Of a stretch of 64,000 bases of DNA, positions 19,347 to 61,629 are shown in pieces. The DNA comes from a virus: IMG/VR virus record IMGVR_UViG_3300032291_003063, positions 5,963 through 69,962 of that record; one strand, 5' to 3'. The translations under genes were made by a program, and so were the position numbers. Each line of letters starts with the position of its first letter. The stretch's first letter is position 1. Under the pieces are notes generated by a model. It was not told where the DNA came from. It did not search any database and worked only from the letters and a program-made list of their open reading frames with translations.

Positions 19347-20081
19347 TTAGACTGCTGCTGCAGCCTTTTCCTTCTTGGTAGCACCATCATAGTCGGCAAC
19401 CTTGATGCCCCTACGAGTTAGCATGGTCTTAACCCCGCGAACAGTCTTGCCAAGCTTATCAGCAATGTCTTGGACAGTCATGTCAGCAACGTCACCAAGG
19501 TCGTCCAAGGCGTCCGTCTTAGCAACGGCCTTGTTAGCTTGATACGGAATGGCCTCAATCTGACCAGCGCGAAGAAGGCTGAGAGCCTTACCACGAACGC
19601 TGTTAATGGCCTTTCCGAGACGCTCGGCGATGGCTTCTAGCGAAGCTCCACCAGTTGCAAGCTGGACAAATACACCTTCTTCTTCTTCGGTGTAGGTACG
19701 TACAGCCTCTACCTTAGGGGTAGGACGCACGTGAGCGGTAAGTTCCATAGAAAGGATCTTACCTTGAATAGACTTAGGCGAGAAGCTTCCGCCCTCAAAA
19801 ACCTCAGCAATTTCCCCGTAGGTATAAGTGCCAGAGTTTGAAGTAACGAAGCTAGCAAGAGCGGCTTCTTGGTCATCGCTATAAGCCTTTACAGCGGCCT
19901 TGTCGGCAGCCGATTGAACTTCATAACCTTCCTTACGCAGCTTGCTGGCTACAGAGCGAGAAGTAGTACCCAGAGCTTCCGCAGCACTCGCTACGGTTTC
20001 AACGGATACGGGGGTCTCACCACCGACTAGGTCGGCAAGTTGGTTAGTACGGTCTTCAGTCCACTTAGGTAAAGCAGTCAA
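19347..20081 (-). CDS. D5-like DNA-binding protein
   Basis: Repeated HTH-like units (RSVASKLRK, SIQGKILS, SVRGKALSL, RGVKTMLTRRG); T5 synteny. Confidence 0.8.
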   Translation of the reverse strand: MTALPKWTEDRTNQLADLVGGETPVSVETVASAAEALGTTSRSVASKLRKEGYEVQSAADKAAVKAYSDDQEAALASFVTSNSGTYTYGEIAEVFEGGSFSPKSIQGKILSMELTAHVRPTPKVEAVRTYTEEEEGVFVQLATGGASLEAIAERLGKAINSVRGKALSLLRAGQIEAIPYQANKAVAKTDALDDLGDVADMTVQDIADKLGKTVRGVKTMLTRRGIKVADYDGATKKEKAAAAV

Positions 20082-23799: not shown

Positions 23800-25087
23800 A
23801 ATAAGTACCTACCCTGAGATTACGGGAGGTAAATGATGAGCCTTAAGTGCCTTATGGTTTAGCACCTTATCCAGTGAAGTTATATCACTATCTCATCAGA
23901 GCCGCACAATTTATATAGCGCAGGCTATAGCGCTTTAACACTTAGATACTCGACTAGCTCTACCACCACCTGTCTCCCGACAGTTCAAAGCCGCTAAGCT
24001 CTTATGATGTGCCTTCTAATCAACACTCTTTGGCTTTCGGCCTAGGAATGACTCCATTCTTTAGTGGAGTATTTGGCTCCTTACTCTAAGTGTAGGACAA
24101 GGCTTTTGATTTTTAAACGATTAGCCGAAGCATTTCTTTTTTCCAATAAAAAGCGTCTTGTGATAGACTATAATCTGCACTTAGGACACGCTCGTCCAGT
24201 AGCTTTCAGCTCTTTTGAAGCCAAAAATGCTACGCGCCCTGAATATCGTTCGGTTTTGCATCCCTACTAGAATGTTTGATGGCTCGATGTGCTATTGCCC
24301 ACCAACCCACTAAACTGGTACCCGCCCTAACCTGCTAAGCTCGGACTGAAGTACACTCGACAAGAACACTATATACCCTCAACTTATTGCAATCCATAAT
24401 TTGACCTTGCGGAGTCAAAAATCATAATCTGCCCGAGTATGACTGTCTGGTAAGCTATTGGGCTTTTACCCTCCTAAGAGAGCAGGGAGTTATTAGCTCC
24501 ACGCCTTGTCTGCGTGCTTAACCCTCTTACGAGGTCGAAACAGTTAGTGCAACCGTTTCTGTCACTGTATCACTACAGCTTTCGCCGCACGCGGCAATTA
24601 GACTTTTTAAGGCACAACGGAGAATTGTGACCAAAGAAGCCTAATTAATTAGGAACTTCCCGCAAGTAGTTTTCTATTCGCTGATACCGGATATAAAGAG
24701 CCGGCCGAGTCGAACAATAAAGAGTTACCACCAGCGTTTTCCTACTAACCGGAACTGGGGAAGAGCTCATCTAAGCATACTTACTAGAACAGTAGGTTCA
24801 TTAGCCAAACTGGTCGTTAGTGTGTAGAAATACTTTTACAAGCAGTTGCTAAACCACGGTAATGTGCCTTTGGCGGGATACCGGTCTTGGAAAGCCTATT
24901 GTTTTTCATCTACTTCAATAGTGGAGTAGTTTACTGTGGTCAAGTCCCGGATAAAGGCCTTACAGAGCCGGGGGTATATTACACAAGGTCCGCTTATGCA
25001 ATTCGCGGGCGAGCTACTCTAAATAGGTATTTATTAGATTTGCCTATTTATTACCGAGAGATTGGCTTTGCAGTCCTCACTCTCAAT
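23800..25087 (-). ncRNA. Candidate giant structured ncRNA (GOLLD/ROOL-class-like), about 1.3 kb
   Basis: Own sigma70 promoter and downstream hairpin terminator, no minus-strand ORF of 60 aa or more, many GNRA-capped hairpins. Confidence 0.7.
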
Positions 25088-35144: not shown

Positions 35145-35488
35145 AAATAGCCCTTAGCCGGGAAGGCTAAGGGCTTGCACTTCTGTTTCGAGGCGTGCCC
35201 GCCCAAGAGAATTAAGCCGCTAGGGCTAATTCTACAAATGCTTCGTTATCGTTAGCATTTATAAGTTTGAACTGATTAGCGGTCGTTTCTTACCGTGTTC
35301 TCCACTATCCTATATGCCAGTCGAAATCTGGTCGCCCCCATCAAATACACCTAGGCCCGAAATCTGGCTATCCATGATCCCTTAGTCTTTCACGTTACCG
35401 CATGGCGCACGCCTAGATGTATATGGTGGAGGCGGGGAGAATTGCACTCCCGTCCTGAACACTTTACTTTCGTATCACCGAACAGTCA
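35145..35488 (-). ncRNA. ssrA: Two-piece (circularly permuted) tmRNA, tag ANDNEAFVELALAA
   Basis: A segment ending ctccACCA (35424) precedes an intervening hairpin and the gggggcg 5' arm (35339). Tag reading frame 35256-35212 follows taaat. Upstream promoter and downstream terminator. Confidence 0.92.
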
Positions 35489-35544
35489 TAAGTATAGCAC
35501 AATATGACCAAAAGTCAAGAACTATTTTTCAAATAGTTATACGT

Positions 35545-44197: not shown

Positions 44198-44234
44198 AAA
44201 ATACCCTCTGGCTCACACCAGAGGGTTTCTTTTT
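44198..44234. terminator. Bidirectional terminator
   Basis: aaaataccctctgg-ctcaca-ccagagggtttctttt. Confidence 0.75.
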
Positions 44235-44523
44235 ATTCGTAGCTCAAATATTCCACTAGCTTTCGAAGGTCTTCTTTTCCAGCTTTTACTAGTGTCGGTA
44301 GTTCAATTCCGAAACGATCCTCGATCTGGCTGACTAGTGCTGCCTTACTGACAATCTCTTGACCCGTCTTGTCTAGGCGAGCCTTTTTGTAGATTCCCAT
44401 TTTCGCTAGCTTTGCTATAACGCTTCGAGTGCTCCGGTTTAATTCAAGGCTTAGCTCCTCGACAGTCTTGCCAGGGTACGCCTCAAGTGCTTCGACCTCT
44501 TCTTTTGTGTACATTTTCCCCAC
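44233..44523 (-). CDS. A2-like DNA-binding protein (paralogue)
   Basis: RSVIAKL..GIY...KTG...KAALV..I...L.KA.K..L pattern. Confidence 0.6.
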   Translation of the reverse strand: MGKMYTKEEVEALEAYPGKTVEELSLELNRSTRSVIAKLAKMGIYKKARLDKTGQEIVSKAALVSQIEDRFGIELPTLVKAGKEDLRKLVEYLSYE

Positions 44524-45125
44524 TCATGCAAAATTGCTTCTTCCATTCCACGTGCTTCGATTTCCCAAGGTGCCCACCAATATTGCGACTTGGTACCAAT
44601 AGGATATTCCTCTCCTCTGTAGAAACCCTTGTCTCCAAGGATCACTAGTCCGGACTGAAACTGCATCTGATGAGCCATTTCGTGGAAAATAACTCGAGGC
44701 AGCTCATCTGCTGGGCAGTTAACGACGATCTCTCCGGGCGTTGCCTCAGCGTAGTGATTAAAGTAACCTCGCTTTAGCCTTGGCTCGGGCACCTTAAGCA
44801 GCTTAGCGGCCCATGTTACTAGATCGGGCTTGCCTCGTTCGATGACGGGTTCTTCCTCGGCATCTTCGGGCACCCACACTGCTCCTGGGATCAACTCATC
44901 TAGAATAACTACGTCGGCCGTTTTTCCTACTAAATCATCAAACGACTTTCCTCTAGATGAGGCATTTTTTTCTTCTGGTCCGTCAGGTAGCCTGCTTCTC
45001 CAGAATTTTTCGATCTCGTCCAACTTATTTCCTACTGGTTCTTGTTCTAGCCAAGCTTGAGACTCAGCGTAGTCGTCTCCGGATCGTAAGCGTTCCTTGT
45101 TCAGTTCGGTAAGGTCAAAGTCCAT
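44451..45125 (-). CDS. Putative zinc metallopeptidase-domain protein
   Basis: FHEMAHQMQ (HExxH) and PWEIEA; AGGAG RBS before ATG 45125. Confidence 0.6.
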   Translation of the reverse strand: MDFDLTELNKERLRSGDDYAESQAWLEQEPVGNKLDEIEKFWRSRLPDGPEEKNASSRGKSFDDLVGKTADVVILDELIPGAVWVPEDAEEEPVIERGKPDLVTWAAKLLKVPEPRLKRGYFNHYAEATPGEIVVNCPADELPRVIFHEMAHQMQFQSGLVILGDKGFYRGEEYPIGTKSQYWWAPWEIEARGMEEAILHEWGKCTQKKRSKHLRRTLARLSRS

Positions 45126-45825
45126 CAAACCAGCTCCTAATTTGGCGGTTTGATTCAAACCACACCCACACTATAATCAATACAAATACTCCAGATAATA
45201 TCATTTTTTGGCGCCACGCGTAACTTCCATGCGACAATTATAGCATATTTGCGTAAAATGTCAAGTTCTATTTCAACTTGACCTAATTTGCTCCCGGCAA
45301 CTCACATCTGGGGCGACTTGCCCCGACCTGAGGTAAAATAGGACTTGACACGCGTGCTGGCCCATGGTATACTTTGAATGCCGTAGCTCATGCACTGGCG
45401 CGGCCAGCTAATAAAAATATGTCAACCACTGGCGCTACCAGTTTGGCTAAAATATGACTTGACATGGCCGCTGTTTGGCCTTATAATGGTGTGATGCCTC
45501 AAAACTTCAGCACGCGGTACACAACGGCCGTATACCACGCACTGGCGCGGAGCACTTAAAGACCATAGCTCGCGCACTGGCGCAGGGAGCTGCGCTGGGT
45601 GAGGTTGCGACTCATTCGCACAAACAAAGGGCTTGACAGGGTTTCTAGTGCGTGGTATACTGGAGTGATGGGCCAAATTTTTGGCGCGTGGGGTGTTGCA
45701 ATTTTGCAACACCCCTATTGATCTAGGCGACAACCTCTTGATAGGGGCGTCCACTGGCCGTAGGCCGGGGCCAAGTTCCGCGACGCGCCTCATAAGCTTG
45801 CGGGGTTGTGTCCTAGATCAAAGGC

Positions 45826-46256
45826 CTATTCGGGATCGATAGTCAGGAAAACAAAAGACACTTCTCCACACTCTTCCATGTGTTCGAGGTTCTCAAAGTC
45901 CCCTTGCTCATCTTCAGTGGTAAAAAGGCCTTCGACCTCTCCATAAAGCTTTGTAGCATATTCCCGCGCCTTGTCAAGAGTAGAAAAAACAACTCCCTCA
46001 AAATAACCGTTCGGGTCGAAATTGTCAATGATCTGATACATTAAAAATTCTCCGGTTCGGGGTCTAGATACATTTCCGAAAAAACCACAACCCCCGCCAT
46101 TTCCATATGAGCGAGGCTTTCCCATTGGCGCATAATATCGTCAGCCCCAATGCTTCCGTCTTCGGTGAAATACTTTGTAGCATATTCCCGCGCCTTGTCA
46201 ATAGTAGAAAAGACAAGATGCTGAAACATGTAATCCGGGTCAAAAATCTGATACAT
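45826..46256 (-). other. Two tandem paralogous small acidic genes (45826-46041 and 46041-46256)
   Basis: Both MYQI...VFST.DKAREYATK...L.HME..G.V.F....DPE, with shared DNA sequence. Confidence 0.7.
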
Positions 46257-46313
46257 GATATCCCTCTCTGTAATCCCGGCTAGATTACTCTAGCCGGGAC
46301 ACATTGTCAAGCC

Positions 46314-46625
46314 TTACTCTTCCGAGATAATCAGGCGAGCCAGAACGGCTTGAAGGCTATTCTTGCTGGCCTTTTCCAAGCCGTCAAGATTGCCCGGAAC
46401 AAACTTAGCGATTTCTTCGACAAGGGTTTCCTTGCGAATAACCGCTTCGCCCGTCTTAGACACGTTAGCCTTGCGCTCATAAGGCACATTCATGCGAATA
46501 GCCTTAGCGGTAATAGACCGCGCCGACTTTCCAAGGGTTGCGCCAAGGGCTTCTGCCTTAGCTTGATTAAGGGGAGCCGCCGCGCGAATAGCGGCTTCCA
46601 TTTCAGGGGTGAACTTAACTTCCAT
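46314..46625 (-). CDS. T5 A2-like pre-early DNA-binding protein
   Basis: SARSITAK...Y.RK...IRKETLV..IAK...LDGLEKA resembles recalled T5 A2; GGAG RBS and own promoter. Confidence 0.65.
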   Translation of the reverse strand: MEVKFTPEMEAAIRAAAPLNQAKAEALGATLGKSARSITAKAIRMNVPYERKANVSKTGEAVIRKETLVEEIAKFVPGNLDGLEKASKNSLQAVLARLIISEE

Positions 46626-47239
46626 TTGTCTTTTTCTCCGTTGCTTTGATGATGTATAATACGACACACACAAGAGTTTGTCAAGAACTTTTTTAGCGGA
46701 GTTTGTTTCCCCCGCCTCTTGAAAATGAATATAGGGCATTCTTAGTCAGGGGTCAAGAACTTTTTTAGAAAAAGATGGGGTTGACAGGGGTGACATACGT
46801 GTGGTATAATTAGTGGGGTGTGCCAATTTTTGGCGCATCGGGTGTTGCATTTCTGCAACACCCTTCGATTTAGTCCCAAAGCTCTCCGGGGCTATACTCT
46901 ACAGTATAGCTAACCCTAGCATACACCTCAATATCTGTAAATTCGAGGGAAAAAATTTCCTCTAGCGTAGCGGAAAAACTTACGTCGTCCACATTAAAGT
47001 GTTGCCAAAAGCCGCCTTCGTCCCGCGCCTTAATGATATACATTAGTCGACCTCCCTTGTGATGCTCAACTTATGGGGAATGATAGCAGCAAATTGCATG
47101 TCTGTCAACCTACAATCGAGATATTGCAATTCGTTTTCTACAAACCTAGCACAAAAATCTCCGAAGCTTTCCCCGTCTTCACTCTGACTTAGCACGTTGC
47201 CCCCGTCAGCGTCAATCGCAATATACATTTTATTTTCCT

Positions 47240-47953
47240 TTATTTGGGTTGATACCAGTCTTTAACCTGAACGTCGCGCCATGTGACCGGCTGAGGATTA
47301 AGATAGACCTTTGGGGACGTTGTGTCAATAAGTTTTTTCAGAATTGGCAATTCATAAAACTTTGCATCTTCTAGGGCTGTATGCGGTTCATCTTCTAGGT
47401 TAGGGTCATTTAGAACAAACCGCGCCATGATTTCGGCTTTAGTCTGAAAAGACATGTTACCGTGCTTAGTAGGATTGTTAAACGCTACGTTATCCAGAAC
47501 AAATTGACGATATGGCTTAGTATGCATCCACCGATTAGCAGAAGCATACCAAAGGCAGAATTGCGTTTCAAAAATTGAAAGGTCAATTCCACTATTCCGA
47601 CATTTGCCTAAGTCAAAGTTTAGGTTATATGCAGTAAGCGCGGGCTTATACTTAGCAAGCGCCTTTGCTAGCCAGCCGTTAACAGCCGGAACACTAGCAA
47701 GCATACGCGATCCGTTAGCTAACATTGCGTCATAAGCGGCGTATCGCTTAGGGAGGTTTTTCTTGCTCCAAAGCGGGTCAGCGTCGCCAATATGGAACAA
47801 CGGATGTTGCTCCCTGTCAAGATAATATTCGCGCACCAAAACGCCACATTCCGCCGCAATATTCCCTTGCCTATCGGCAATAACCGCGCCAAAATCCGCG
47901 ACCATATCGCTTTGCGTCGTTTCTGTATCGACGATTAGAAAATATTTCTTCAT
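47240..47953 (-). CDS. DEDDh 3'-5' exonuclease
   Basis: IVDTETT, AYNLNFD, HTALED. Confidence 0.8.
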   Translation of the reverse strand: MKKYFLIVDTETTQSDMVADFGAVIADRQGNIAAECGVLVREYYLDREQHPLFHIGDADPLWSKKNLPKRYAAYDAMLANGSRMLASVPAVNGWLAKALAKYKPALTAYNLNFDLGKCRNSGIDLSIFETQFCLWYASANRWMHTKPYRQFVLDNVAFNNPTKHGNMSFQTKAEIMARFVLNDPNLEDEPHTALEDAKFYELPILKKLIDTTSPKVYLNPQPVTWRDVQVKDWYQPK

Positions 47954-48149
47954 GGGTTCCCCTTAGTGAAGCTAGATAATACTCTATTTTTAGGCGATTG
48001 CAAGCGAAATGTTTGCTTGACAACCTAGGGCCACACGTGTTATAATTAGTGGGGTGTGCCAATTTTTTGGCGCAAATTTAGGGGGTTGACACGTGTTCTA
48101 GCGCGTGTTATAATTAGTGGGGTTCTCCGAATTTTTGGCGCGGCGGGTG

Positions 48150-51100
48150 TTACATTTCTGTAACACCCTTTTGCTCTAACTGCTCCAATTCGTATTCTAG
48201 GTCCTCTATAATATTCTCTACCACATTAATTTCAGCGTGGCAATAGTATAGGGCGTCTGCTACACTGTTAATGTCTGCATCATTGTTGGTTTGAATTGCT
48301 TCTAGCAAATCCTTAATAAAAATCGCTCTATCTTCTAGCAAGTTTGCTAGAACCCACTTTTCATCTTCTATGGCTTGCAGAATTTCCTCTTGGGCACTAG
48401 ACATTAATGATCCTCGTTTCATCATTATACGTCAGACTTTCTAGAAGGTCTTCAATCTCCCCCGTCTCTTGATCTGTAAGCGGGTAATGTTCCAGTAGGC
48501 TTGTCAATTCAATACAAATAAGCCTCAAAGTGCTAGAACTAATACTTACAATTCCAATATGTGCCATTATCGTTTTCCTTTCGCGTCAATACATCTTACA
48601 CCGAAATTGTTCATCGCGTCAATAACTTTGTCGTTGTCATCCCACATAGTTACACGATTAACAGGCACTTTAATTCGGGACAGTAGCCGTGCCAATTGCT
48701 CAACTTTTAGCTTTCCGTCCTCTGTCATACAACCTTTAGGCCGACTAAGAACATAATGGAAAGGGACATTGTTGTCAAGAAAAAACTTGTAGTCAGCGCG
48801 ACTAAGAATTCGCGCCGTGCAAATCACGACAATTCTTGACTTATAGAATTTCCGCATAGTATGCACTAGCGGCAAAAGCTTATCTTGTGCAATCTTTTGC
48901 GGAGTGTTATTTTCTAGCCAATGCTCCAAATCAATAGAGCCATCAGGCTTACTAGCGTGACGGTGGCGGCTATCAATCACGGTTCCGTCAAGGTCAAAAA
49001 CAGCAACTTTCATGTGTCCCTCCGTTGATGCTGTATAGTAGCACACAAAAAGAGCCTGTCAACGCAATTGTTTTGTTGACAGGCTGATATGCACGTGTTA
49101 TAATTAGTGGGGTTCTCCGAATTTTTGGCGCTGAAGGTGTTGCATTTCTGCAACACCCTTCCTACTAGTCATTCTGAGGCGTCCTGCCCCCCGAGCCAAT
49201 AACCTTCGCTATAGCCTTCGCTATACCCATCGGAATAAGCGTCACTTTCGCCCTCCTCCAAGAGGGTGTCAACCTCTTTTCGCAGTTCTTTACTAGTAAG
49301 TTGCCCGGTCTCAAATTCGGCAAAAATTGTTTCAATACTACGCATCTTCGCTCCCTTGCATTCCGTCATCATGACCGGCCCCATAGCCGTCATCATAACC
49401 GTAGTTATATCCATCATTATAGTTGCTTAGAGCAACATCGTCAATGTAATTTTGGAATTCCGTAGACATAATAGATTTTTGCGAGGCTGTCATCAAGTCA
49501 AAAGTGACGCCTGCCTCGCAAAGTATATCCACAAACTCACCCCAGGTTGCTGTATATTTCATATGTGTCTCCCTGTCTGTAGTAACCATAATAGGCCGAT
49601 TGTAGGGCCTTGTCAACTAGTTTATCCAACTTTTCGGGGTTTAATTCTCCGCCGAATTCCACTAAAAACAAAATATCCTTAGTTAACTGGTGCATTTTAC
49701 CTCCATGGAAAAATAATAAGGGCTAGCATAACACTTTGCATTAGAAAGCCAAAGGAATTTGAAATAATATACAGGCGGTCACTTTGTGCAATAGCCCGAA
49801 CAAGAAACAGGCCAAGCCCCGCCCATACTAGCAGGACCATTGACAATGGGGGCAAAGTAGGATTTGCACCAGCCAAAACGCCAATAGTCGCCGGAAGTGT
49901 TGCGGAATGAATAAGGGCCATTCCGACGTAGCCGCCGATCTCTGTCTTTTTCATGCTTGTATATTAGCATAAAAAAAGCATCTGTAAAGCGAATTGTTTT
50001 GTTGACAGCCTGAGCGCCGCGTGCTATAATAAGTGGGGCACTCCAAAATTTTGGCGCAAGTGGCTGTCGTTAGACAGCCGGAGTCTCGCTTACTTCGTAT
50101 AGGAGGAAGTCATATGCGCTCGCTTCCCACATATCGTCAAAGCGGTCTGATTTTCCTTCCTTAGCCATGATTTGATTGGCAACTTTCAGCGCGTGATCCT
50201 CACTAGTGCAAATATACGCCTCGCAGCTAGATCCGTCAATTAGAACAAACATCAGTCATTTCTTCATCCTAAAAAGAGCATACTCGATAATATCGAAAAT
50301 GTCAAACGATTGACATTCGATACCATGACAATCCATTTTTCGAAGTGTATTGGCATGGTCATAGTCCTCCATTACCTGCTTCTTAATTAGATATCTAGCA
50401 GCATCATTCAATGAAAAACCCGTCCCAGACTCATATAGTTCTCGCACTGCTTCCGTAGTAACATCAGGCTTATACATCTTCTAATTCCTCCGGTTTACAT
50501 TGGTCACAAACGGGCCCGCAGTCTGTATCTACAGCTTCGGACATTTCGCACCACCAGCCACAACAATCGCACTCAAAAATGCGATTGTCAAGCTCAAATA
50601 GAATAGCTGTTTCGTTTTCATAGAAAAAAGTTTCCTCAGCTTCTTCTAGGCTATCCATATGCCCATAAAGACTTTTGCAAGTGCCTTGCAGTTCGTGCAC
50701 TAGCCTTTCTGAAAAGTCTTCAATATTCATTTCATTCTTTCCTTAATTTCAGGGCAACTCTCGGTTAGGCCGGACTCATTTTCTCGATATAAGTCTTTCC
50801 CATCCCAATAGTCAAAGCTATAATAGCTGCAATAATACCCCTCGTCAATAGAATATTCTTTATGGGGGCAATTATCACAACTAGATACAGTAACTTGAAA
50901 AAATAGTTGTGTCACTGCTTCACCTCATACCAAATGTCCTCAACGTCAAGGTTATGCTCTAACGCCTCGTAGGCGGCTCGCATCACTCCGGCATTAGGAT
51001 TACCATTCCAAGTGAAGGCTGTCAACACTTCATTTGTCTTTAGGCGAATATAAATGGTATACATAGCCGTTCTCCGATTGAGTCCCTATTATATATGAAA

Positions 51101-54100
51101 TTCTTTGAAAGTCAAGTGCTTTTTTCGGTTGACTCGCGCACACGCACGTGTTATAATAAGTGGGGCACTCTAAAATTTTGGCGCAAGGGTGGGTCAGGTA
51201 TACGAACCTGACCCTTTGTTGCAGTTTGCGGCCACCCGAGTAGCAAGCTCGGACCCGTATTACTGTCTACAGAAAGTAAACCTCTTGCTTGTTGGCCGGG
51301 CTGAGTCGCGCGCGGCAAAAGAACTTTCTATAGTAAACACAAAAGATTTTTCTACCGCTGCTCAACCACCCGGTATACTTTGCTTTTTGTGCTCCAACAA
51401 CCTTGCTAGTCGCGAGCCATTCCCTTCCAGGCTGTCTCCACTAGCTCTAGGAATTCTTGCCCCCAGCTAACTCTGTAATACTAACACACCGCCTAGGCTT
51501 GTCAAGCGGTTATTTCGGCGGCCCACTCTTCCGGGGTAATTCCAGTCATCAGAAATTCCCGATCATCCGCGCTAAGATAGGAAAGCGTGTTCTGAATAAG
51601 CCCGTCACCATACCACCACTTGCGATAGTCTCGAATATCGAGAGCGATTTCTCGCTTGTGCGTCTTTCCGGTTAGCTTAGACACTCGCACAAAAATATAC
51701 GTCTGCATGTCTGTCCCTCCGTTGATGATTATTTATAGCACGAAAAAACATAAAAACAAGCGAAATGTTTGCTTGACTCTCGCACTCGTATGTGTTACAC
51801 TAGGCTGATCACTTCAATTTTTTGGCGCAGGGGGTGTGGCAGAAATGCCACACCCCGCCCCTCAGTCGTCAAACCCGCAGGTCTGCATAACTAGAGAGTA
51901 GATTTCATTTGCAATTTCGTTGTCGCTAAAATCAGCAATCAACTCTTCACCATCCGAGGCGTTGCCCCAAACCAGCAGAAACGACGCGACGGTTCCTCCG
52001 TTTAGGTCCTTAGCCCAAACCGTTTGCTCGTCCGTGCACCCGAGTTCCTCGTCTTCAATGACAGCCTCAAGTCGGGCAGCATTGATGATCCTTACCAACG
52101 TCTCGGCAACTGTAGTCTCTCGCATGTCTGTCTCCCTGTTGATGATTTATAATAACCCATTTTTATATAAAAACAAGCGAAATGTTTGCTTGACAGCACC
52201 CGATTATTCGTGGTATAATGGTCTGATGCCCGAAAATTTTTGGCGCCTGGGGTGTCTCAAATTGAGACACCCCTTTCATTATGCCGCGTTGCGGTCCCGG
52301 TAGTCTTGCATTTCCGTAATGTTGTCCCAGCCTTCCGGGACGTTTCCGATAAACGGGTCCGGCATGTCTTCCCGCCCCAGCGCGGCGGCAACCGCACCGA
52401 TCGCCAGAATGACTTGCTGAAGCTGTTCAGAAAATGCCGGAATGTTCCATTCCGGAAAAGCGGCGGAAACTTCATCGCGGGCGATGTTGGCGATGATCAG
52501 GTCTTGCGCGGTCAGGTTCATTTGTCGTCTCCGATTGATGATTTATAATACCCTATTATGGAGCGCAGTCAATAGCTAATTCGAGGCTATCGGCAAATTC
52601 TTGCATAAGAATTGCAATCGCCCGAATTTCGGCCGCATCGCGGTGCATAGCCGTAGGGTTATTAAAAATGCCCTTAAGATAATACTTATCCACAAAAGGA
52701 GCATACCGCGCATCAATTTCACGAAACTTTGCGGCGTTTGTATTGCTATAAGAAATTTGCATGGCTCGTTCTCCGTTGATGACCCATACTAGCGCAAAAA
52801 AAGCATTTGTAAAGCGAATTGTTTTGTTGACAGCCATTCTCTAGCGTGTTACAATGGGGTGATGCCTAAAATTTTTGGCGCTGGGGCTGTTGCAATTTTG
52901 CAACAGCCCGCCCGTCAGGAAATCTTAATGTTGAAGGCTTCCAGACCTGCCGCCCCATACTCTCCCTCTATGGTCTGAATAACCGCCTCGATAGGGTCAA
53001 GCTCTTCATCCCACATATCCCAGTAACATTGATCCGGCCAGTCCTCTCGGCCAAGGCCGGTAATCTTGATAAAGCAAGCATCCACGCGATCCATCCAAAC
53101 TTCGAACGTGTCCATGTCTGTCTCCCGGTTGATGATTTATAATAACCCATTTTTATATAAAAACAAGCGAATTGTTTTGTTGACAGCTATTCTCTAGCAT
53201 GTTACAATGGGCTGATGCTTGAAATTTTCGGCGCTGGGGCTGTTGCAATTTTGCAACAGCCCGCCCGTCAGTTGTAACTCTTCATAAACGCTTTCTTTGC
53301 CAACTTGTCTGCCCATACCAGCAAAAATGCTGGAACTGCAAAAAGAACAATAGGCCCCCAAAAAAACGAGAAGACGAAGCCCGAGACTGCTAGTCCGCGA
53401 AGGTGTTCATATTGTGCGTCAGATGTAATTACATCTGACCACCAGTATTTGGCCTCCCTACGCACGGCAATAATGACAAGTCCCCAAGAGATGACTATGC
53501 CTATGGCATAGAGGCGCACTATGTCCCACTCTTCAAAAACCATTAGTCTGTCTCCCTGTTGATGACCTATAATAACCCATTCCTAGCAGTAGTCAAGAAA
53601 TCTTTTCGCTTGACAGGCTGAAAAAATGTGCTAAAATCGGCGCGAGTTAGGCTCGCTTGTTGCGCTTAAACGAGCCTTTGCCCTTTTTGGGCTTGACAGT
53701 CGCGGGCTTATTAAACTTGCCCATGTATCTAGCGACGGGGTTTCTCATTCTGGACCCTTCGGAACCACCCGGCGACTATCCTCAATTTTAGTCGTATCAC
53801 GGATAGTCTGCTCAAGTTTCTCAATCTCGTTAAGGAAATCATCGCGCTTTTGGCGAAGAACTCGGATGGTGGCATTGGCCTTCTTCAAATCAGCCGTAGC
53901 CTCTTCCGCAAGGGCGGTTGCCTGATTAGCAAGCTTCTGCCACGTTTCCGCAGTCTCGCGCCATTGCTTAGCAAGTTCCAGCGCCCACTTATATGCTTCC
54001 GTATAGTTCATGTCGTTTCTCCGATTTTGAGTATACATCAAGCCTCTGGCTTGTCAAGTCTCTTTAATCGTGACTTCTGCAGTAAAAGTGCTAATCTTTT

Positions 54101-55397
54101 GCGCTACAAAAACCTCAACTTCCGGCATATTCTTAGCGCGAATTTGAGCGTTAGACCGAGCAAGCTCTAGCGTTCCGTAGCCCTCGAAAGCCGGTTCATC
54201 ATCGTTTGGGTTGTGGTAATAAACAACATAGTTCATGTGTGTTCTCCGATTGAGCCTTTATTATATATGAAATTCTTTGAAAGTCAAGTGCTTTTTTCGG
54301 TTGACTTGTTTTGCGACACGTGTTAAAATATGTAGCGCACTCACTTTTTCTGGCGCAAGCGCCGCACTTAGTTATCGCACTCACTTTGGCGCAGGCCGCT
54401 GGGGGTTCGTGTCAGATCGACACGAACCCCTTTTGCTCCAAATGAGCAAAACCCCCTTTTGCTCCAAGTGAGCAAAAGCCCTAGTGCTAATGCGACTCAT
54501 TCGCAACTAGGCTGAAAAAGAAAGCCCGGCTCTAAGGCCGGGCTTTGGGCTTAGTGGTCCCGCCGGGCGTCGGCGAAGGCACATACGTAGCCAAAGATGA
54601 TGGCCCAAAAGGCCATGGCGACAAGTGCGTGGGTTGGGGTCATGCTCTTCCCCCTAGCAGTGCGCCAGCGCCAATCACAATACCCGACAACCCTTCTGGC
54701 CCGCCCACGAGTAGGTTAGCAAGTCCGAGAATGATAAGCCCGCCCGGAAGGAAGCTCACGAGACGGCCACCCTTTAGGGGAGCGTTAGAGCGCGTGCGAC
54801 AGAACATGAATTGAAAGCGGCCGATTTTCAGAAAGTGAAAGCCACCGTGCTTTTTGACGCTGATCATTGCGAAGCCTTTCAGGAAGGAAAGGGGAGCCTT
54901 GCGACTCCCCTAGGATTTCAGTCTCGCAGAATAACCGTTCGAAAATCGCCGGGGTTGCCCTCACTGTAGGATGCATAAGCAATCGTGGTGTCTTTCGTGA
55001 AATGCGCGTTTGCGACGTTGATTTCGCAGAGGGGAAATTCCGCCAGCATTTCTGCTAGAACAGTGCGAACTTGCGAAGGATTTTCGCAGATGCGAACGCC
55101 TATCAATTCATGATCGGAATTGAAGGCAGAAACAGCGTAGTAAGTTTGATAGGGAGACAGGGACATTTGAATTCCTTTCGGAAGGGGAAGGGAAGGGGAG
55201 CCCGTCGGGCTCCCCTAGTTTTCAGGCAGCGCGGTAGAAAATGCGCGTCGGCAGATTGTGCCGACGGGACCAAGCGCGAGCGAAAGCGCGGGCTTCACTG
55301 ACAGAGAGCCAGCCTGTCAGATTGTGGGCACCCTTGAGGTTTCCCTTTTCGTCCATCGAATGAAAGCCTTCGATCCGAGCAACAAGCGAATTCATGT
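48150..55397 (-). other. Many small, mostly acidic pre-early-type hypothetical genes, each cassette with its own promoter
   Basis: ORFs at 48150, 49169, 49338, 49697, 50070, 50256, 50470, 50727, 51502, 51862, 52279, 52556, 52915, 53268, 53745, 54054, 54640, 54918 and 55222, most preceded by GGAG or GGAGAC RBS. Confidence 0.6.
48567..49013 (-). CDS. HAD-family phosphatase (polynucleotide 3'-phosphatase or nucleotidase-like)
   Basis: FDLDGT, CTAR, K, WDDN; GGAGG RBS. Confidence 0.8.
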   Translation of the reverse strand: MKVAVFDLDGTVIDSRHRHASKPDGSIDLEHWLENNTPQKIAQDKLLPLVHTMRKFYKSRIVVICTARILSRADYKFFLDNNVPFHYVLSRPKGCMTEDGKLKVEQLARLLSRIKVPVNRVTMWDDNDKVIDAMNNFGVRCIDAKGKR

Positions 55398-55578: not shown

Positions 55579-55702
55579 ATACTTGTAGGACAGGGGCGGT
55601 TATTAGACTACTACTTATAGCCCTGCTGCGGGCTCCCCCGCACGTGTAACTTTAAAAAAAATAATTCTTGACAACGTAGGTCACACACATCATAATGAAC
55701 AC

Positions 55703-56107
55703 ATGAATTTAGTACCACAACCCGAATGGCTCGAAGTAGCCAACACCTATCTATATACAGGCTGCTCCATTCCAGACACAGCGGCCCAGTTACAGATACC
55801 CGCGCACTCCGTGACGGAAATTCTAGCGAAACGAGACGTTAAGGCGTACGTTGACTCAGTCTTTCTAGATCTGGGCTACCGAAACAAAGCCAAGCTAGGC
55901 CAGTTACTTGACACGATTATCGACTCCAAAATTGCCGAAGCCGAAGAATCGGGACTCTACACTAGTAAAGACCTAGTGGACCTAATTGCCCTGGCTCACA
56001 AGATGCGTATGGATGAGATAAAGTCTCAAACACCAAATCAAACGAATATTCAGATTAACAACTATGACAATCTGATGGGGAGGCTCCTTGGAAGTAAGCC
56101 GTCTTGA
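55703..56107 (+). CDS. Terminase small subunit
   Basis: Precedes and overlaps terL; leaderless after TTGACA-17-CATAAT; T5-like QTNIQIN tail. Confidence 0.75.
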   Translation: MNLVPQPEWLEVANTYLYTGCSIPDTAAQLQIPAHSVTEILAKRDVKAYVDSVFLDLGYRNKAKLGQLLDTIIDSKIAEAEESGLYTSKDLVDLIALAHKMRMDEIKSQTPNQTNIQINNYDNLMGRLLGSKPS

Positions 56108-57769: not shown

Positions 57770-58928
57770 CTTCTTTTTAAAGGCTAATACTTCCCAGCCT
57801 ATGATTGTTATGCGAGAAGGCACTAGTATTGATAGTGCTGAGCCCATACACACATATAAGCAGTACTATGAAAAGCTAGAAATAGTTAATCGGGCTATCA
57901 ATATGATAGTAGATGACGTGGCCGAAGTCCGTGCTAAAGTTGGTGAGCCAACGACTGCTACACGTAGAATTAATCGCACCAAGAAAGTAGCTGTTGACAG
58001 GCTTTTAAATGTGGAGCCTAATCCGTACCAGGATGTAAATACCTTTTTTAGAAATCTAATTCTAGACTATCTTATTGAGGGAAACATCTTTATTTACTAC
58101 GATGGTATGCACATGTACCATTTACCGGCCGATGACGTAACTATTCACCCAGACGAAAGAACATACGTGTTAAAGTATGAGTTTGCGGGGCGAATTGACT
58201 ACAAGCCGGAAGAGATTATTCATATCAAGGAAAATAGCTTTGAGTCTATCTACAGAGGAACGCCTCGGCTAAGAGCTTGTCTACGTAGCATGAAGCTACT
58301 AGACTCTATGAGAAATTTTCAGGATAACTTCTTCAAGAATGGAGCTGTTCCCGGTCTAGTAATTAAAACTCCGGCAACTCTGTCGAACAATATCAAGCAG
58401 CGAATGCTTGAGGATTGGGCTCAGAAGTACCGTCCCGGAGCAGGGGGTCGTCGCCCCCTAATTTTAGATGGCGGAATGGAACTTGAGGACATTAGCAAGC
58501 TAAACTTTAGAGACCTGGACTTTGAGGCCTCAATTGTCTCGAATGAGGAGACCATTTTAAAGGCTATTGGTGTTCCACCGATTCTTCTAAACAGTGGCAA
58601 CAATGCTAATCTTCGTCCTAATCACCGAATCTACTACCTAGAAACAATCATTCCAATCGTTAGAAAGCTAAACTTTGCTTTTGAGCGTTTCTTTGGGTTT
58701 AAAATTACCGAGGACGTTGCAAATGTTCCGGCACTTCAACCCGAACTTCAGGATCAAGCATCCTTTCTGAGTAGCCTAGTGAACGCCGGTATTCTAACGG
58801 CAAACGAAGCCCGCGAAGTTCTGGGACGTGACAACCTAGAGGGACATGATGATCTAAGAATTCCAGCCAATATTGCTGGTAGCGCCGCTAACCCGTCAGT
58901 GGGTGGGAGACCATCTAGTGGAGATTGA
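57756..58928 (+). CDS. Portal protein (HK97 type)
   Basis: FFKNGAVPG, IGVPPILL, TANEAR. Confidence 0.92.
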   Translation: MAWYNFFLKANTSQPMIVMREGTSIDSAEPIHTYKQYYEKLEIVNRAINMIVDDVAEVRAKVGEPTTATRRINRTKKVAVDRLLNVEPNPYQDVNTFFRNLILDYLIEGNIFIYYDGMHMYHLPADDVTIHPDERTYVLKYEFAGRIDYKPEEIIHIKENSFESIYRGTPRLRACLRSMKLLDSMRNFQDNFFKNGAVPGLVIKTPATLSNNIKQRMLEDWAQKYRPGAGGRRPLILDGGMELEDISKLNFRDLDFEASIVSNEETILKAIGVPPILLNSGNNANLRPNHRIYYLETIIPIVRKLNFAFERFFGFKITEDVANVPALQPELQDQASFLSSLVNAGILTANEAREVLGRDNLEGHDDLRIPANIAGSAANPSVGGRPSSGD

Positions 58929-61629
58929 TCTAAAACCGACAGAAGGCATGGCCCGAGAGGCTCAACGCGCCATCGACTGGCGTAAAGAAGGACACCCCGG
59001 AGGAACTCCGGTGGGCTGGGCCAGAGCCAGGCAACTAGTAAACCGACAGCAACTATCCCCTCGAACAGTCAAGCGTATGCACAGCTTTTTTAGCCGTCAC
59101 GAAGTTGATAAACAGGGAGAGGGCTTTTCTAGCGGACCAAACTACCCATCTAAAGGCCGAGTTGCCTGGGGACTTTGGGGTGGAGACCCCGGACAGACCT
59201 GGGCTCGCGCTAAATGTGCGGCACTAGACAAGTCCCTGAACGATTATGGAGTTTCATGCCCCACAGTTACTCATAATGCTGAACTTAACCTTGCTAATCA
59301 TTTAATTGCTATTGAGGAAGCTGGACTAGGTCCTGCAAATCCGAATGCTCCTGAGAATGAGTTCTGGGCTGAAAAAGCCTCCGAATGGAATATCTCTGAG
59401 CCCGAAGCACGCAATAGGCAATGCCAAAACTGTGAGTACTATAAAAATACCCCAAAGATGCTAGAATGTTTGAGGTCTTCAACGTTGAAGGCTTCTGATC
59501 TTCCAGTAACCCCAAAGTGGACCGATGTTAGTACCCCAGCTGGATACTGCACACAATTTGATATTACTTGTACAGCTACTAGAACCTGCTCTGAGTGGGA
59601 CCCTCAGGAGTTTGTCGAGGACGATATGGAGAAACTTATGAACAAAGTATTTACTTTGGACTCCACAATCAAGGCCATAGAAGATACTAGTACTGAGCTT
59701 CGAATTGAAGGGTATGCTAGTACAGATGCTCTTGATAGGGCTTCGGATAAAATTCTTCCATCGGCTTGGACTAAAGGAGGCCTAAACAATTATAAAAATA
59801 ATCCTATTCTTCTGTTTAATCACAATTATAGTGAACCTATTGGCAGAGTAACAGAAATTGCCACAGATGCAACGGGACTAAAGATCAAGGGTGTTATCAG
59901 CAAAAGCGCTGGAAGAGTTTATGACCTTGTAAAAGAGCGTATTCTTACAACTTTCTCGGTTGGATTTAAGATTAAAGACGCCGATTATGATAAGAGCAAC
60001 GATGGTTTAATCGTTAAGGATGCCGAACTTCTAGAGGTATCCGTAGTTACAATCCCATGTAATCAAGACGCAGTATTTTCTATTGCCAAGTCTTTTGACA
60101 ATATAGCGGATTACGAACAATATAAAAGTGTATTTGTTAACAACGAAGTAAAGACTTCCGCAGTAGCTACTACACAGAGCGGTGCCAAGGCACCAATGGA
60201 GAGAATAAAAATGGATTCTGTTGATTTCGCAGCTCTAGTTGAAAAGACTGCTAAAGACACTGCCGAAAGAATTGTAACTGCCCAAGCCGAAAAGGCTGCC
60301 GCAGAAAAGGCAATTGTTGACGCTGCTAATGCTAAGGCTGCTGAAGAAGCTGCTGCTACCGAAAAGCTTCTAACCGCAGTTACATCGGGCATGAAGAGCG
60401 GTGCTGAACGCCTTATCTCTGACATGGAGTCAAAGCTGGCTTCCAAGGAAGCCGACCTTTCTAGTATCATTGACGAAAAGATCAATGCTCTAAAGGAAGC
60501 TAGCGACGAAATGATGAAGATGCGTGATTCTAAGCGTGTATTTGCCGACCGTGGTCGTGGCAATGGCGACTGGAAGAGCGACAAGGGTCTCTACAATGAA
60601 GTAGAAGACGCTTATATTCTAGGTGTAGCTACCAACAAGGGTTGGAATACAGACTACGGTAAGGAAGTAATGGAAAAGGCCAACACTCAGTCGGGTGTTG
60701 TAGTTCCTACTGATGACTACGAGCGTGAAGTTTCGACAAATATTGAGCGTGATATTCAGTTGGGTCTCGTACTAGCCCCTCTATTCCGTGAGATTCAACT
60801 ACGTAGCGCAAACCTGATCGTTCCGATCCTACCTGACGCTGGTTACGCTGAAATCACTGCCAACCAAACTGGCTCTGGCTCAAGCCCAAATGGTAACTTA
60901 GAGGCCCGTGGTGCTGCCTTCGGTTCTCCGTACGGTGGTGTTACAATGTCTTCGGTGACTCTTAGCACTGTAAAGCTAGTAGCACACAGCTTCCTTGGAA
61001 ACGAAACAGAAGAAGATGCGATCATTCCTATTCTTCCTCTTATTCGTGAGTCCCTAATTCGTGCGCATGTTCGTGGTGTTGAAAACGCCATGCTGCTAGG
61101 AAACCACACTACTGGTGTTTACACCTCTGGCGCTTTCAACGGTCTGGTTCAGATTGCTTCGACCAGCTCACGCAACCTTCAATCTGCAACTGCACAAGCT
61201 TCCGAGTCTCTAACAGGGACTCAGCTGCTAAATGCACGTAAGAACATGGGTAAGTACGGCGTAAACCCACGTGACGTTATTTACATCGTATCACTAGGTG
61301 AGTACTACAACCTACTTAAGGATACTGCTTTCCAGGACTGGAACCAAGTTCAAAATGACGCAATCAAGATGACTGGTGAAGTAGGCATGATCTACGGCTC
61401 TAAGGTTATTGTTTGTGACGAGTTTGCAAGCCCGGCCGTTTCGAGGCACTATGCTGTTGCTGTTAATCCTCGTAACTTTGTTGTTCCTCGTCTACGTGGT
61501 GTAACCATTGAGAACGACTATCAGCCAAGAAACCAAAATACGGCAATTATTACAACTCAGCGTATTGGATTCTCTGAGGTAATTGCTGGTGCTACAGCGC
61601 TAACCAGCCTACAATACAAGGCTACTTAA
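58918..61629 (+). CDS. Single ORF: N-terminal accessory domains, HK97 prohead protease and major capsid protein
   Basis: Protease motifs IEGYAST, LFNHN, FSVGF, LLEVSVV from about 59638; coiled delta domain and HK97 capsid from about 60211; no in-frame stop. Confidence 0.85.
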   Translation: MEIDLKPTEGMAREAQRAIDWRKEGHPGGTPVGWARARQLVNRQQLSPRTVKRMHSFFSRHEVDKQGEGFSSGPNYPSKGRVAWGLWGGDPGQTWARAKCAALDKSLNDYGVSCPTVTHNAELNLANHLIAIEEAGLGPANPNAPENEFWAEKASEWNISEPEARNRQCQNCEYYKNTPKMLECLRSSTLKASDLPVTPKWTDVSTPAGYCTQFDITCTATRTCSEWDPQEFVEDDMEKLMNKVFTLDSTIKAIEDTSTELRIEGYASTDALDRASDKILPSAWTKGGLNNYKNNPILLFNHNYSEPIGRVTEIATDATGLKIKGVISKSAGRVYDLVKERILTTFSVGFKIKDADYDKSNDGLIVKDAELLEVSVVTIPCNQDAVFSIAKSFDNIADYEQYKSVFVNNEVKTSAVATTQSGAKAPMERIKMDSVDFAALVEKTAKDTAERIVTAQAEKAAAEKAIVDAANAKAAEEAAATEKLLTAVTSGMKSGAERLISDMESKLASKEADLSSIIDEKINALKEASDEMMKMRDSKRVFADRGRGNGDWKSDKGLYNEVEDAYILGVATNKGWNTDYGKEVMEKANTQSGVVVPTDDYEREVSTNIERDIQLGLVLAPLFREIQLRSANLIVPILPDAGYAEITANQTGSGSSPNGNLEARGAAFGSPYGGVTMSSVTLSTVKLVAHSFLGNETEEDAIIPILPLIRESLIRAHVRGVENAMLLGNHTTGVYTSGAFNGLVQIASTSSRNLQSATAQASESLTGTQLLNARKNMGKYGVNPRDVIYIVSLGEYYNLLKDTAFQDWNQVQNDAIKMTGEVGMIYGSKVIVCDEFASPAVSRHYAVAVNPRNFVVPRLRGVTIENDYQPRNQNTAIITTQRIGFSEVIAGATALTSLQYKAT

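Follow-up and report, generated by a model that had tools for sequence, protein, structure and literature searches.

Gene-less antisense promoters with a TGGCGC palindrome among the early-type gene cassettes of an uncultured T5-like phage

The locus and its gene-less promoters

We analyzed a 64,000-nt stretch of viral DNA (the window), which covers positions 5963-69962 of the 69,962-bp viral contig IMGVR_UViG_3300032291_003063. Our subject was an array at 45.2-54.4 kb of the window, in which strong promoters without a gene stand opposite to cassettes of small genes. The contig comes from a T5-like phage that is known from metagenomes only, and its completeness was estimated at 67% by CheckV. 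Its T5-like gene set comprises a D5-like transcriptional regulator, a split NAD-dependent ligase, SbcCD, a D15-type exonuclease, a family A polymerase, a primase, a DnaB-type helicase, ribonucleotide reductase, ThyA and PhoH. The - strand also carries 23 tRNA genes, a permuted transfer-messenger RNA (tmRNA) and a GOLLD RNA. From 55.7 kb, the + strand encodes the small and large terminase subunits, the portal, a protease-capsid fusion, a head-tail adaptor, a T5 p143-like protein and the tail terminator. The contig begins with tail fibre genes and ends with the tail terminator, and no overlap between its ends was found. The closest terminases among deposited phages were those of 113-kb Demerecviridae of Vibrio (51% identity), and the array DNA matched none of the deposited phages in near and distant searches. 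Synteny with T5 suggests that the array may lie on the first-injected DNA; a protein-binding ratchet for DNA entry was among the five alternatives that the original prediction listed, without preference, for the array.

About 28 small genes are packed densely on the - strand of the array. They are grouped in cassettes, each with a - strand promoter of its own and a short conserved leader. The original prediction, which was made from the letters of this DNA, had described single-gene cassettes; the small-gene cassettes with a - strand promoter of their own were indeed present, and they hold one to five genes. On the + strand there are 15 strong sigma70-type promoters without a gene (starts in Table 1). 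All of them are antisense to the cassettes and aimed at the terminase. A scan of 44.5-55.5 kb for the promoter consensus returned 56 promoter-like sites, compared to 15.7 +/- 4.5 in shuffled sequences. When the whole contig was scanned with the composite pattern TTGACN-N16-18-TANNNT-N18-25-YGGCGC, that is, with YGGCGC 18-25 nt after the -10 element, 13 forward and 2 reverse matches were obtained, all of them confined to the array, and the reversed control gave no match in either direction.

The canonical unit starts with TTGACA, followed after 17-18 nt by TGn-TATAAT and then by 21-23 nt ending in AAWTTTT(T)GGCGC. After a further 2-6 nt comes a hairpin with a stem of 7-11 bp. The unit promoters agree with the consensus at 11-12 of 12 positions and have the TGn in addition. 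They differ clearly from the promoters that drive genes in the array and in the tRNA/replication region, most of which read TTGACT-N16-TATAAT without TG and GGCGC, with an A/T-rich discriminator and a Shine-Dalgarno (SD) sequence within about 20 nt. In the gene-less class we found TTGACA-N17/18, TGn, a G-rich discriminator and GGCGC. Only one promoter of the GGCGC class has a gene. It lies on the - strand at 45264, upstream of the genes 44451-45128 and 44233-44523. In T5, the promoter classes are described as differing mainly in the discriminator (PMC7472727).

We searched the unit strand, within 150 nt, for SD-preceded open reading frames (ORFs) of 40 aa or more, and none of the 13 units listed by the scan had one. 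The same search in relatives gave 0/6, 0/6 and 0/3 units, and 3/13 doubtful cases in the locus L003. These results bear out the predicted set of about 15 gene-less consensus promoters. Micro-ORFs within the units were also considered and rejected: the ATG of the GTGATG subfamily falls in differing frames relative to the motif. A sigma54 promoter, which has GG-N10-GC spacing, was rejected as well, as the units show GG-N13-GC. ARAGORN called a tRNA-Ala(GGC) at 48039-48115 (+). This call spans the units 48017 and 48086, has no Rfam support, and is most likely a false positive produced by the G-rich start and the palindromes of the units. Readings as Chi-like sites or as TerS sites were rejected, because they leave the link to promoters unexplained.

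When the units were aligned on the -10 element, a block upstream of the -35 element, AAAAACAAGCGAAATGTTTTG, was conserved too. The -35 of the divergent gene-strand promoter lies within this block. The repeat unit is thus a back-to-back promoter pair together with the hairpin, and the module is about 150-200 bp long. Some copies are nearly identical: 51087-51134 and 54259-54306 agree at 48/48 positions, and 52817-52915 and 53170-53268 (units 10 and 11) at 93/99, so that both pairs noticed in the original prediction were verified. The gene content of the array also varies. We compared 31 window genes in and around the array with the L003 locus: 13 were without a counterpart there, and the others stood in the same order. 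Some of the insertions and deletions relative to L003 abut a hairpin, on one side only.

The TGGCGC palindrome and the hairpin in the window and its relatives

A GGCGC follows the -10 element in 14 of the 15 promoters, at a distance of 21-23 nt in 12 of them and of 1 nt at 53610. With at most one mismatch, TTTTGGCGC has 38 matches in the window, compared to 16.2 +/- 4.1 in shuffles, and none of 100 shuffles reached 38. There are 12 exact matches, of which 11 lie on the + strand between 45206 and 52881 and one on the - strand at 47886, also within the array. The full form AATTTT(T)GGCGC is present in 11 units, and the boundary units have CACTGGCGC, TTCTGGCGC or CGGCGC in its place. It had been predicted that this full form follows each -10 by about 15-25 nt; this describes most of the units, and the boundary units and the one at 53610 depart from it. 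The invariant columns of the motif are A, TT and GGCGC.

We then looked at relatives. Pattern scans of public viral contigs gave one true relative among 6 loci and likewise one among 19 loci. The scan of metagenome contigs gave at least 120 loci and that of genome contigs 101, nearly all of them single chance matches, and four loci (L030, L049, L085 and L095) were kept after filtering. The locus L003 (record G001, 71 kb), with 70-75% nucleotide identity in common genes, carries 13 units on one strand at 2.9-10.8 kb, adjoining the terminase, with no control match. The four filtered loci, whose GC content goes down to 33%, have exonuclease-like, HAD-like or membrane proteins in common with the window. 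L085 also shares the terminase (66% identity), the portal (53%) and the orientation of the units. In these four loci the units read ...GTGCC-A5T5-GGCGC and are followed by unrelated hairpins, some of which are canonical terminators. A search with the exonuclease-like protein gave 11 more viral contigs at about 50% identity. Three of these, the 98-kb genomes G002-G004 (92-100% complete), have 6 units each, all on one strand, with no control match; in G003, a complete genome, the units at 79.0-84.9 kb face the terminase at 76.0-77.3 kb.

Two side observations concern the arrangement of units in relatives. In L095 (1876-1965) and L049 (1213-1300) there are face-to-face promoter pairs, whose -10 elements are separated by 31-38 nt, with a common GGCGCC...CGGCGC palindrome in the interval; two polymerases could hardly fire from such a pair together. 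In L030 (1170-1430, 33% GC), three tandem 80-nt copies contain the motif and a hairpin (CGTGCCAAAAATTTTTGGCGC and ACGAATCATTCGT) without a consensus -35.

Across clades with about 50% protein identity, the promoter, the TGGCGC and the orientation are kept while the flanking sequence is not. This indicates that the antisense promoter itself is under selection, and it counts against one group of explanations, in which the array is a sponge for host RNA polymerase or the antisense promoter is a functionless passenger of a mobile module resembling the promoter-early stem-loop (PeSL) elements. Such explanations would agree with the consensus state of every promoter element, with the G-rich discriminator of the window clade, with modules up to 100% identical over 48 nt, and with the differing cassette content of relatives. 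The discriminator sequence is linked to the lifetime of the promoter complex, and the GC-rich discriminator of the 98-kb clade is not the design of a trap; nor does a sponge need one unit per cassette. The sponge, which the original prediction had offered, leaves both features unexplained. We regard the sponge or passenger as improbable, and it would appear to explain the least of the five readings considered here.

The 98-kb clade clarified the nature of the motif. Its unit is TTGACA-N18-TAAAAT-(T)TGGCGCC followed by the hairpin. That is, the GGCGC lies 1-3 nt past the -10, at or before the start site, whereas it lies at +16 to +20 in the window clade. A perfect inverted repeat with arms of 9-13 bp and a spacer of 3-4 nt, for example GCCAAAATTATA-TGA-TATAATTTTGGC, is present in 15 of the 18 units of this clade (5/6 per locus in three loci, of which two have the same sequence at these sites). 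It covers the promoter spacer, the -10 and GGCG, and its right arm holds the -10 and GGCG. The arms co-vary: CCGA..TCGG in some units corresponds to CCAA..TTGG in others, the lengths of the A/T runs are matched, and the left arm is not transcribed. In the window clade, the same half-sites GCCAAA and TTTGGC abut each other downstream of the start. Because the arms co-vary although the left arm is untranscribed, and because the distance from the -10 is specific to the clade, the TGGCGC(C) with its palindrome is a DNA-level promoter element and not an RNA tag. In line with this, the 5' hairpin that the motif could form in RNA (GUGCC-A/U-GGCGC) is stable in few units, with a mean of -3.7 kcal/mol compared to -3.3 kcal/mol for the reverse complement, and an RNA hairpin CCAAA/UUUGG as a general feature was rejected, being no better than its reverse complement. 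The palindrome would fit an operator or a DNA hairpin, and would be compatible with a site for a DNA enzyme.

Such an enzyme could be the one that introduces the single-strand interruptions of T5 DNA, as the original prediction had also suggested; the GGCGC sites would then be interruption sites clustered on one strand of the virion DNA. The T5-like gene content, the purine before the GCGC core and the strict strand bias of the motif resemble the T5 situation, and GCGC is enriched about 2-fold in the 44-59 kb bins only. The T5 consensus is R/GCGC(RGG) (PMC3517423), and the feature notes of AY543070, where nicks are annotated at 9748, 22336 and 39746, agree with it. Nick 9748 is A/GCGC with an 18-bp palindrome directly after it, and nick 39746 is about 35 nt from a bidirectional terminator. 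In the array, the minimal R/GCGC is present at all units, as G/GCGC. The extended consensus is mostly absent: RGG follows at only 3 of the 21 + strand GGCGC sites at 45.1-54.6 kb, and in the 98-kb clade GCGC is followed by C and not by R. None of these T5 nicks follows a promoter, and the reading leaves the consensus promoter and the palindrome over the -10 unexplained. We consider it distinctly unlikely that the units are nick sites.

The second part of the unit is the hairpin. Eleven units carry a GC-rich stem of 7-11 bp, which is 10-11 bp long in 7 of the 11, and two of the units, 50002 and 51129, have an unrelated hairpin. We examined the pairing in 20 units from the window and L003, all of which were counted, so that the misaligned 50002 and 51129 contribute unpaired cells. 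Stem positions were paired in 93.6% of cells, and both sides had changed together in 7 of 11 pairs (24 cells). None of 500 shuffles reached these values, and slid registers gave 37-57%. The hairpin is a genuine helix, in which paired changes have preserved the complementarity. The predicted palindrome with compensatory changes was thus confirmed in kind, in 11 units where 8 had been counted. It had also been expected to abut the stop codon of the next gene. In most units, not all, it lies within about 10 nt of a - strand stop; an opposite-strand stop was found 8-33 nt past GGCGC in 7 of the 10 hairpin units that the scan listed.

On the gene strand, none of the 11 unit hairpins has more than two T in its 8-nt tail, whereas outside the array seven perfect hairpins have 5-6 T there. 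On the unit strand, 5 of the 11 have at least four T. The perfect-palindrome stems themselves give no strand information, and the flanks do so in part. Since the T tails sit on the unit strand, the target of the array hairpins, if they terminate intrinsically, is the unit's own transcript. A polymerase on the gene strand would meet no canonical stop at the cassette ends.

These hairpins could also be the product of the units. That is, the promoters might make abundant hairpin RNAs of 30-55 nt early in infection, which would act as decoys, as antisense RNAs similar to lambda oop or as protein binders. The maximal promoters followed by a helix with strong covariation are as expected from this explanation, and so is the fact that the hairpin is the sole part transcribed in both clades, with GGTGT..ACACC kept in the stem across clades at about 50% protein identity. 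In units 10 and 11 there are moreover one paired A-U to G-C change and U.G pairs in the 5' part. In contrast, TGGCGC, the most conserved element, is outside the RNA in the 98-kb clade, the 5' hairpin is as weak as described above, the loops vary, and the palindromic stems lack strand information. Rfam 15 gave nothing at gathering level in 45.1-54.7 kb, with four sub-threshold matches at E = 0.18-0.87. In lambda, the short oop RNA has a promoter of its own, which is convergent with the 3' end of an early gene, and its transcription stops at a hairpin. The units of the array differ from it in that they overlap at most a hairpin in the 3' untranslated region, not the coding region, and in that they form a family of 13 with a DNA-level operator. 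The original prediction had proposed tiny RNAs or antisense timers; TGGCGC as an RNA element is ruled out in the 98-kb clade, and we think the RNA reading as a whole unlikely.

Table 1. Coordinates of the array features and of related genes in the window
Feature	Position	Strand	Description
Gene-bearing GGCGC-class promoter	45210-45264	-	TTGACA-N16-TGnTATAAT; GGCGC 21 nt past -10
Left boundary	45345-45587	+	Consensus promoters 45345 and 45459; no unit-type hairpin
Left-boundary motif copies	45397, 45431, 45544, 45579	+	4 x CACTGGCGC; positions are those of GGCGC
Unit 1	45633-45715	+	Promoter; GGCGC 45683; hairpin 45690-45715
Unit 2	46781-46863	+	Promoter 12/12, TGn; GGCGC 46832; hairpin 46840-46863
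Unit 3	48017-48073	+	Promoter; GGCGC 48069; no hairpin; tandem with unit 4
Unit 4	48086-48168	+	Promoter; GGCGC 48137; hairpin 48145-48168
Unit 5	49076-49157	+	Promoter; GGCGC 49127; hairpin 49136-49157
Unit 6	50002-50079	+	Promoter; GGCGC 50053; unlike 7-bp hairpin 50062-50079
Unit 7	51129-51214	+	Promoter; GGCGC 51180; unlike 9-bp hairpin 51191-51214
Unit 8	51773-51856	+	-10 TACACT; GGCGC 51824, fits R/GCGCRGG; hairpin 51831-51856
Unit 9	52190-52273	+	Promoter; GGCGCC 52242; hairpin 52249-52273, U-rich tail
Unit 10	52827-52909	+	Promoter; GGCGC 52877; hairpin 52884-52909
Unit 11	53180-53262	+	TTTCGGCGC with paired A>G change upstream; hairpin 53237-53262
Second-type unit	53610-53643	+	TAAAAT, then directly CGGCGC, as in the 98-kb relatives
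Right boundary unit	54301-54430	+	Promoter; 2 x CACTCACTTT..GGCGC at 54352 and 54388; canonical + terminator 54402-54430
Early-type cassettes, 1-5 small genes	45826-54236	-	Own - promoter each; leader CATCAAYNGGAG..ATG
Exonuclease-like gene	47240-47953	-	In array cassettes
HAD/PNKP-phosphatase-like gene	48567-49013	-	In array cassettes
96-aa protein with GcrA-type/D5-N-like DNA-binding domain	44233-44523	-	
103-aa paralogue of the 96-aa protein	46314-46625	-	Inside array
Full-length T5 D5-like transcriptional regulator	19347-20081	-	N-terminus related to small array proteins

Small DNA-binding proteins and the possible role of the units

The 96-aa and 103-aa array proteins (Table 1) form one family, with two to four copies per array. 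Elsewhere, L003 has two copies, L085 three, L030 and L095 one each, and the loci L252 and L257 four each; all members lie within or beside arrays. The 96-aa protein matches the N-terminus of PHROG 323, 'D5-like transcriptional regulator' (E = 7.5e-7), and the family profile aligned with the N-terminus of the D5-like protein of the window (hhalign, E = 7.6e-5, probability 62%). Seven of 16 members match the Pfam family GcrA (PF07750) with a best E of 2.1e-6, one of them at 29.0 bits compared to a cut-off of 26.9; the 96-aa window copy itself falls below the GcrA model. A profile search of the PDB returned the DNA-binding domain of GcrA (5yiu), covered over its whole length, at E = 0.21. The family as a whole thus has an N-terminal DNA-binding domain of the GcrA type. 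In the AlphaFold model of the 96-aa protein (mean predicted local distance difference test score 85), a three-helix N-terminal domain is followed by a helical C-terminal domain. As a side observation, the full-length D5-like regulator apparently has three helix-turn-helix (HTH)-type modules (residues about 6-53, 136-169 and 198-223); the third matches region 4 of sigma70, and the N-terminal one is common to the small array proteins.

GcrA is a sigma70 cofactor of Alphaproteobacteria (PMC4647560). Its DNA-binding domain is reported to act from sites upstream or downstream of the start site, and its C-terminal CCCH zinc finger binds region 2 of sigma70 (PMC5887438). The likeness to the array is that a short DNA element, here TGGCGC, stands at variable positions upstream or downstream in sigma70 promoters. 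The differences are that the array proteins do not have the CCCH sigma-interacting domain and that the motif is not GANTC. From the co-occurrence and the type of domain, we infer that the small array proteins are candidate readers of the TGGCGC palindrome.

Taking these results together, we tentatively favor the explanation that the units are factor-controlled convergent modules of promoter and hairpin, which would insulate or shut off the early cassettes and would also serve as repeats for cassette turnover; we regard this as possible but not as probable. Each unit would be a self-contained and very strong host-sigma70 transcription unit without a gene, composed of a consensus -35, a spacer of 17-18 bp, a TGn -10, the TGGCGC(C) within a GCC-A/T-GGC palindrome, and the GC-rich hairpin. 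It would sit head-on at the 3' end of an early cassette and back to back with the promoter of the next one, and the modules would act as regulated convergent stoppers. That is, a polymerase bound at the antisense promoter, or starting from it, would meet the polymerase leaving the end of the upstream cassette. Such a collision or occlusion would be of consequence, since a U-tract is missing from the hairpin on the gene strand; what the hairpin would mainly terminate is the 30-55 nt transcript of the unit itself. The palindrome would be the DNA operator through which the array-encoded proteins with the GcrA/D5-like domain switch the unit promoters, and the switching would determine how well the cassettes are insulated from each other and when the early genes are shut off. 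Being repeated, the modules may also favor the gain, loss and exchange of cassettes.

Several points weigh against this explanation. Sequencing runs found to contain this DNA comprised five DNA-type entries, one of them possibly its source, and no RNA entry. An elongating polymerase usually displaces a promoter-bound one, so that the units need not act as a barrier. It is also not evident why insulation should require an operator, or as many as 13 promoters of maximal strength. The boundary units, which repeat CACTGGCGC and have no hairpin, are at odds with a simple stopper, and the conservation of GGTGT..ACACC hints at a sequence-specific role of the stem that the stopper model would leave unexplained. 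As for the regulator, the link between protein and motif is so far one of co-occurrence only; the 96-aa protein contains no Cys and thus no CCCH zinc-finger sigma-binding domain; and Foldseek found no match to its model at E <= 0.001, the best weak matches being HTH DNA binders.

The same anatomy could also belong to a switch of promoter-proximal termination. In the PR'-tR'/Q system of lambdoid phages, a strong sigma70 promoter is followed almost at once by a terminator, has the factor site in or near it, and is directed towards the late genes. Here, the hairpins would hold the units until a factor on the TGGCGC palindrome produced a terminator-resistant polymerase, and 6-13 promoters would then read antisense through the early cassettes, silencing them, into the terminase and late operon. 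Several findings are in its favor: all units aim at the late module in three clades, a hairpin lies immediately 3' of each promoter, the possible factor site is in the core promoter or just past the start, and the array itself encodes DNA-binding proteins. A -10-like pause element could, we infer, be provided by the A/T tract at about +9 to +15. T5-type phages have three temporal gene classes transcribed by unmodified host sigma70 polymerase, and the mechanism of class switching is stated to be unknown (PMC7472727).

Other findings speak against such a switch. No match to the Q families PF06530 and PF03589 was found on the 67%-complete contig, and U-rich tails on the unit strand occur in 5 of 11 hairpins only. 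Lambda has one copy of the system, compared to 6-15 here; the units are antisense to early genes and kilobases away from the late operon, and many hairpins are without U-tracts. The last unit is separated from terS by three more hairpins and three - strand genes, and terS has a promoter of its own at 55668. Moreover, no units of this class were seen in the first 42 kb of T5 and in the 33 kb around the terminase of the T5-like Vibrio phage 70E37.6. We therefore rate a Q-like switch as rather unlikely. Its specific form, in which the GcrA/D5-like proteins on the palindrome turn 6-15 stopped antisense units into read-through as a temporal switch, is in our view quite unlikely. If it did hold, read-through would silence the early cassettes by collision and antisense RNA and would feed the terminase and late operon. 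The array would then be a multi-copy, Q-independent circuit of antitermination or de-repression, and it would offer a starting point for the unsolved question of how T5-type phages switch from early to late genes.

Should the units be regulated barriers or switches, convergent promoters would have a new part in the timing of phage genes, and D5-like domains would gain a function. If the units are instead nick sites or sources of RNA decoys, an old T5 enigma or anti-defence RNAs would be tied to promoters. In any case, the uncultured T5-like relatives have a conserved and easily testable cis-architecture, in which protein-less promoters of maximal strength stand head-on at every early cassette end together with a co-travelling GcrA/D5-like DNA-binding family, and in which the DNA palindrome shifts between the core promoter and +16 according to the clade.

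Comparison with PeSL elements and further features of the contig

The nearest described elements appear to be the PeSL cassettes of T4-type phages (Arbiol et al. 2010, PMC2839356; Comeau et al. 2014, PMC4122927). Both systems consist of repeated small cassettes, in which a consensus sigma70 promoter with A/T-rich DNA upstream of it is combined with a GC-rich stem-loop. PeSL cassettes are concentrated in a hyperplastic region of small non-essential early genes, and the array may lie in a region of this kind; in both cases the cassette content differs between relatives. Recombination between PeSL cassettes yields mini-circles. An early promoter with an A/T-rich upstream region and a stable stem-loop in one cassette is also what we found here. 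PeSL promoters, however, point in the direction of the genes, and the end of the cassette is formed by the SD and the start codon of the gene that follows (PMC2839356). In the array only the weaker - strand promoter of the module has this orientation; it drives the gene, while the consensus promoter is antisense and gene-less, and the TGGCGC palindrome is added. The array thus lacks one defining PeSL feature and possesses a distinctive operator-like element. The proposal of PeSL-like cassettes in the original prediction is partly supported, by the repeated promoter and stem-loop and by the high gene turnover (13 of 31 genes unshared), and the direction of the consensus promoters speaks against it. 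Searches of the open-access literature found no description of antisense gene-less promoters or of the TGGCGC palindrome in T5-like phages, in agreement with the earlier statement that no description of this architecture was known. The module may be of use as a compact natural promoter/insulator part and as a means of recognizing hyperplastic early regions in phages other than the T4 group.

Two observations concern the cassettes. The - strand promoter TTGACA...TAATCT at 46274-46299 has an 11-bp stem-loop between its -35 and -10, which is the arrangement described for the commonest PeSL subclass. The tandem paralogous 71-aa genes 45826-46041 and 46041-46256 (-) both start with MYQI, and L003 has a single related copy.

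Elsewhere in the window, a full-length GOLLD RNA lies beside the tRNA array at 23811-24242 (-), with 174.6 bits compared to a gathering score of 150. The two-piece permuted tmRNA is at 35170-35522 (-), where both the tmRNA_permuted and the alpha_tmRNA model match; the permuted tmRNA plus the GcrA-like domains hints at a host group with a permuted tmRNA. The protease-capsid fusion is one ORF of 918 aa at 58873-61629 (+) with matches to the prohead protease (S78) and the major capsid protein, which are encoded by separate genes in T5. The terS promoter, TTGACA-N17-CATAAT at 55668-55705 (+), ends 6 nt upstream of the small terminase ATG (55703) and, if used, would give a leaderless terS mRNA. Finally, a direct repeat of TTTTGCTCCAARTGAGCAAAA lies at 54431-54478 (+), with the last unit on one side and a bidirectional terminator (54521-54546) on the other. 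It consists of two copies, each palindromic, and this region is possibly a genome-end or packaging region.

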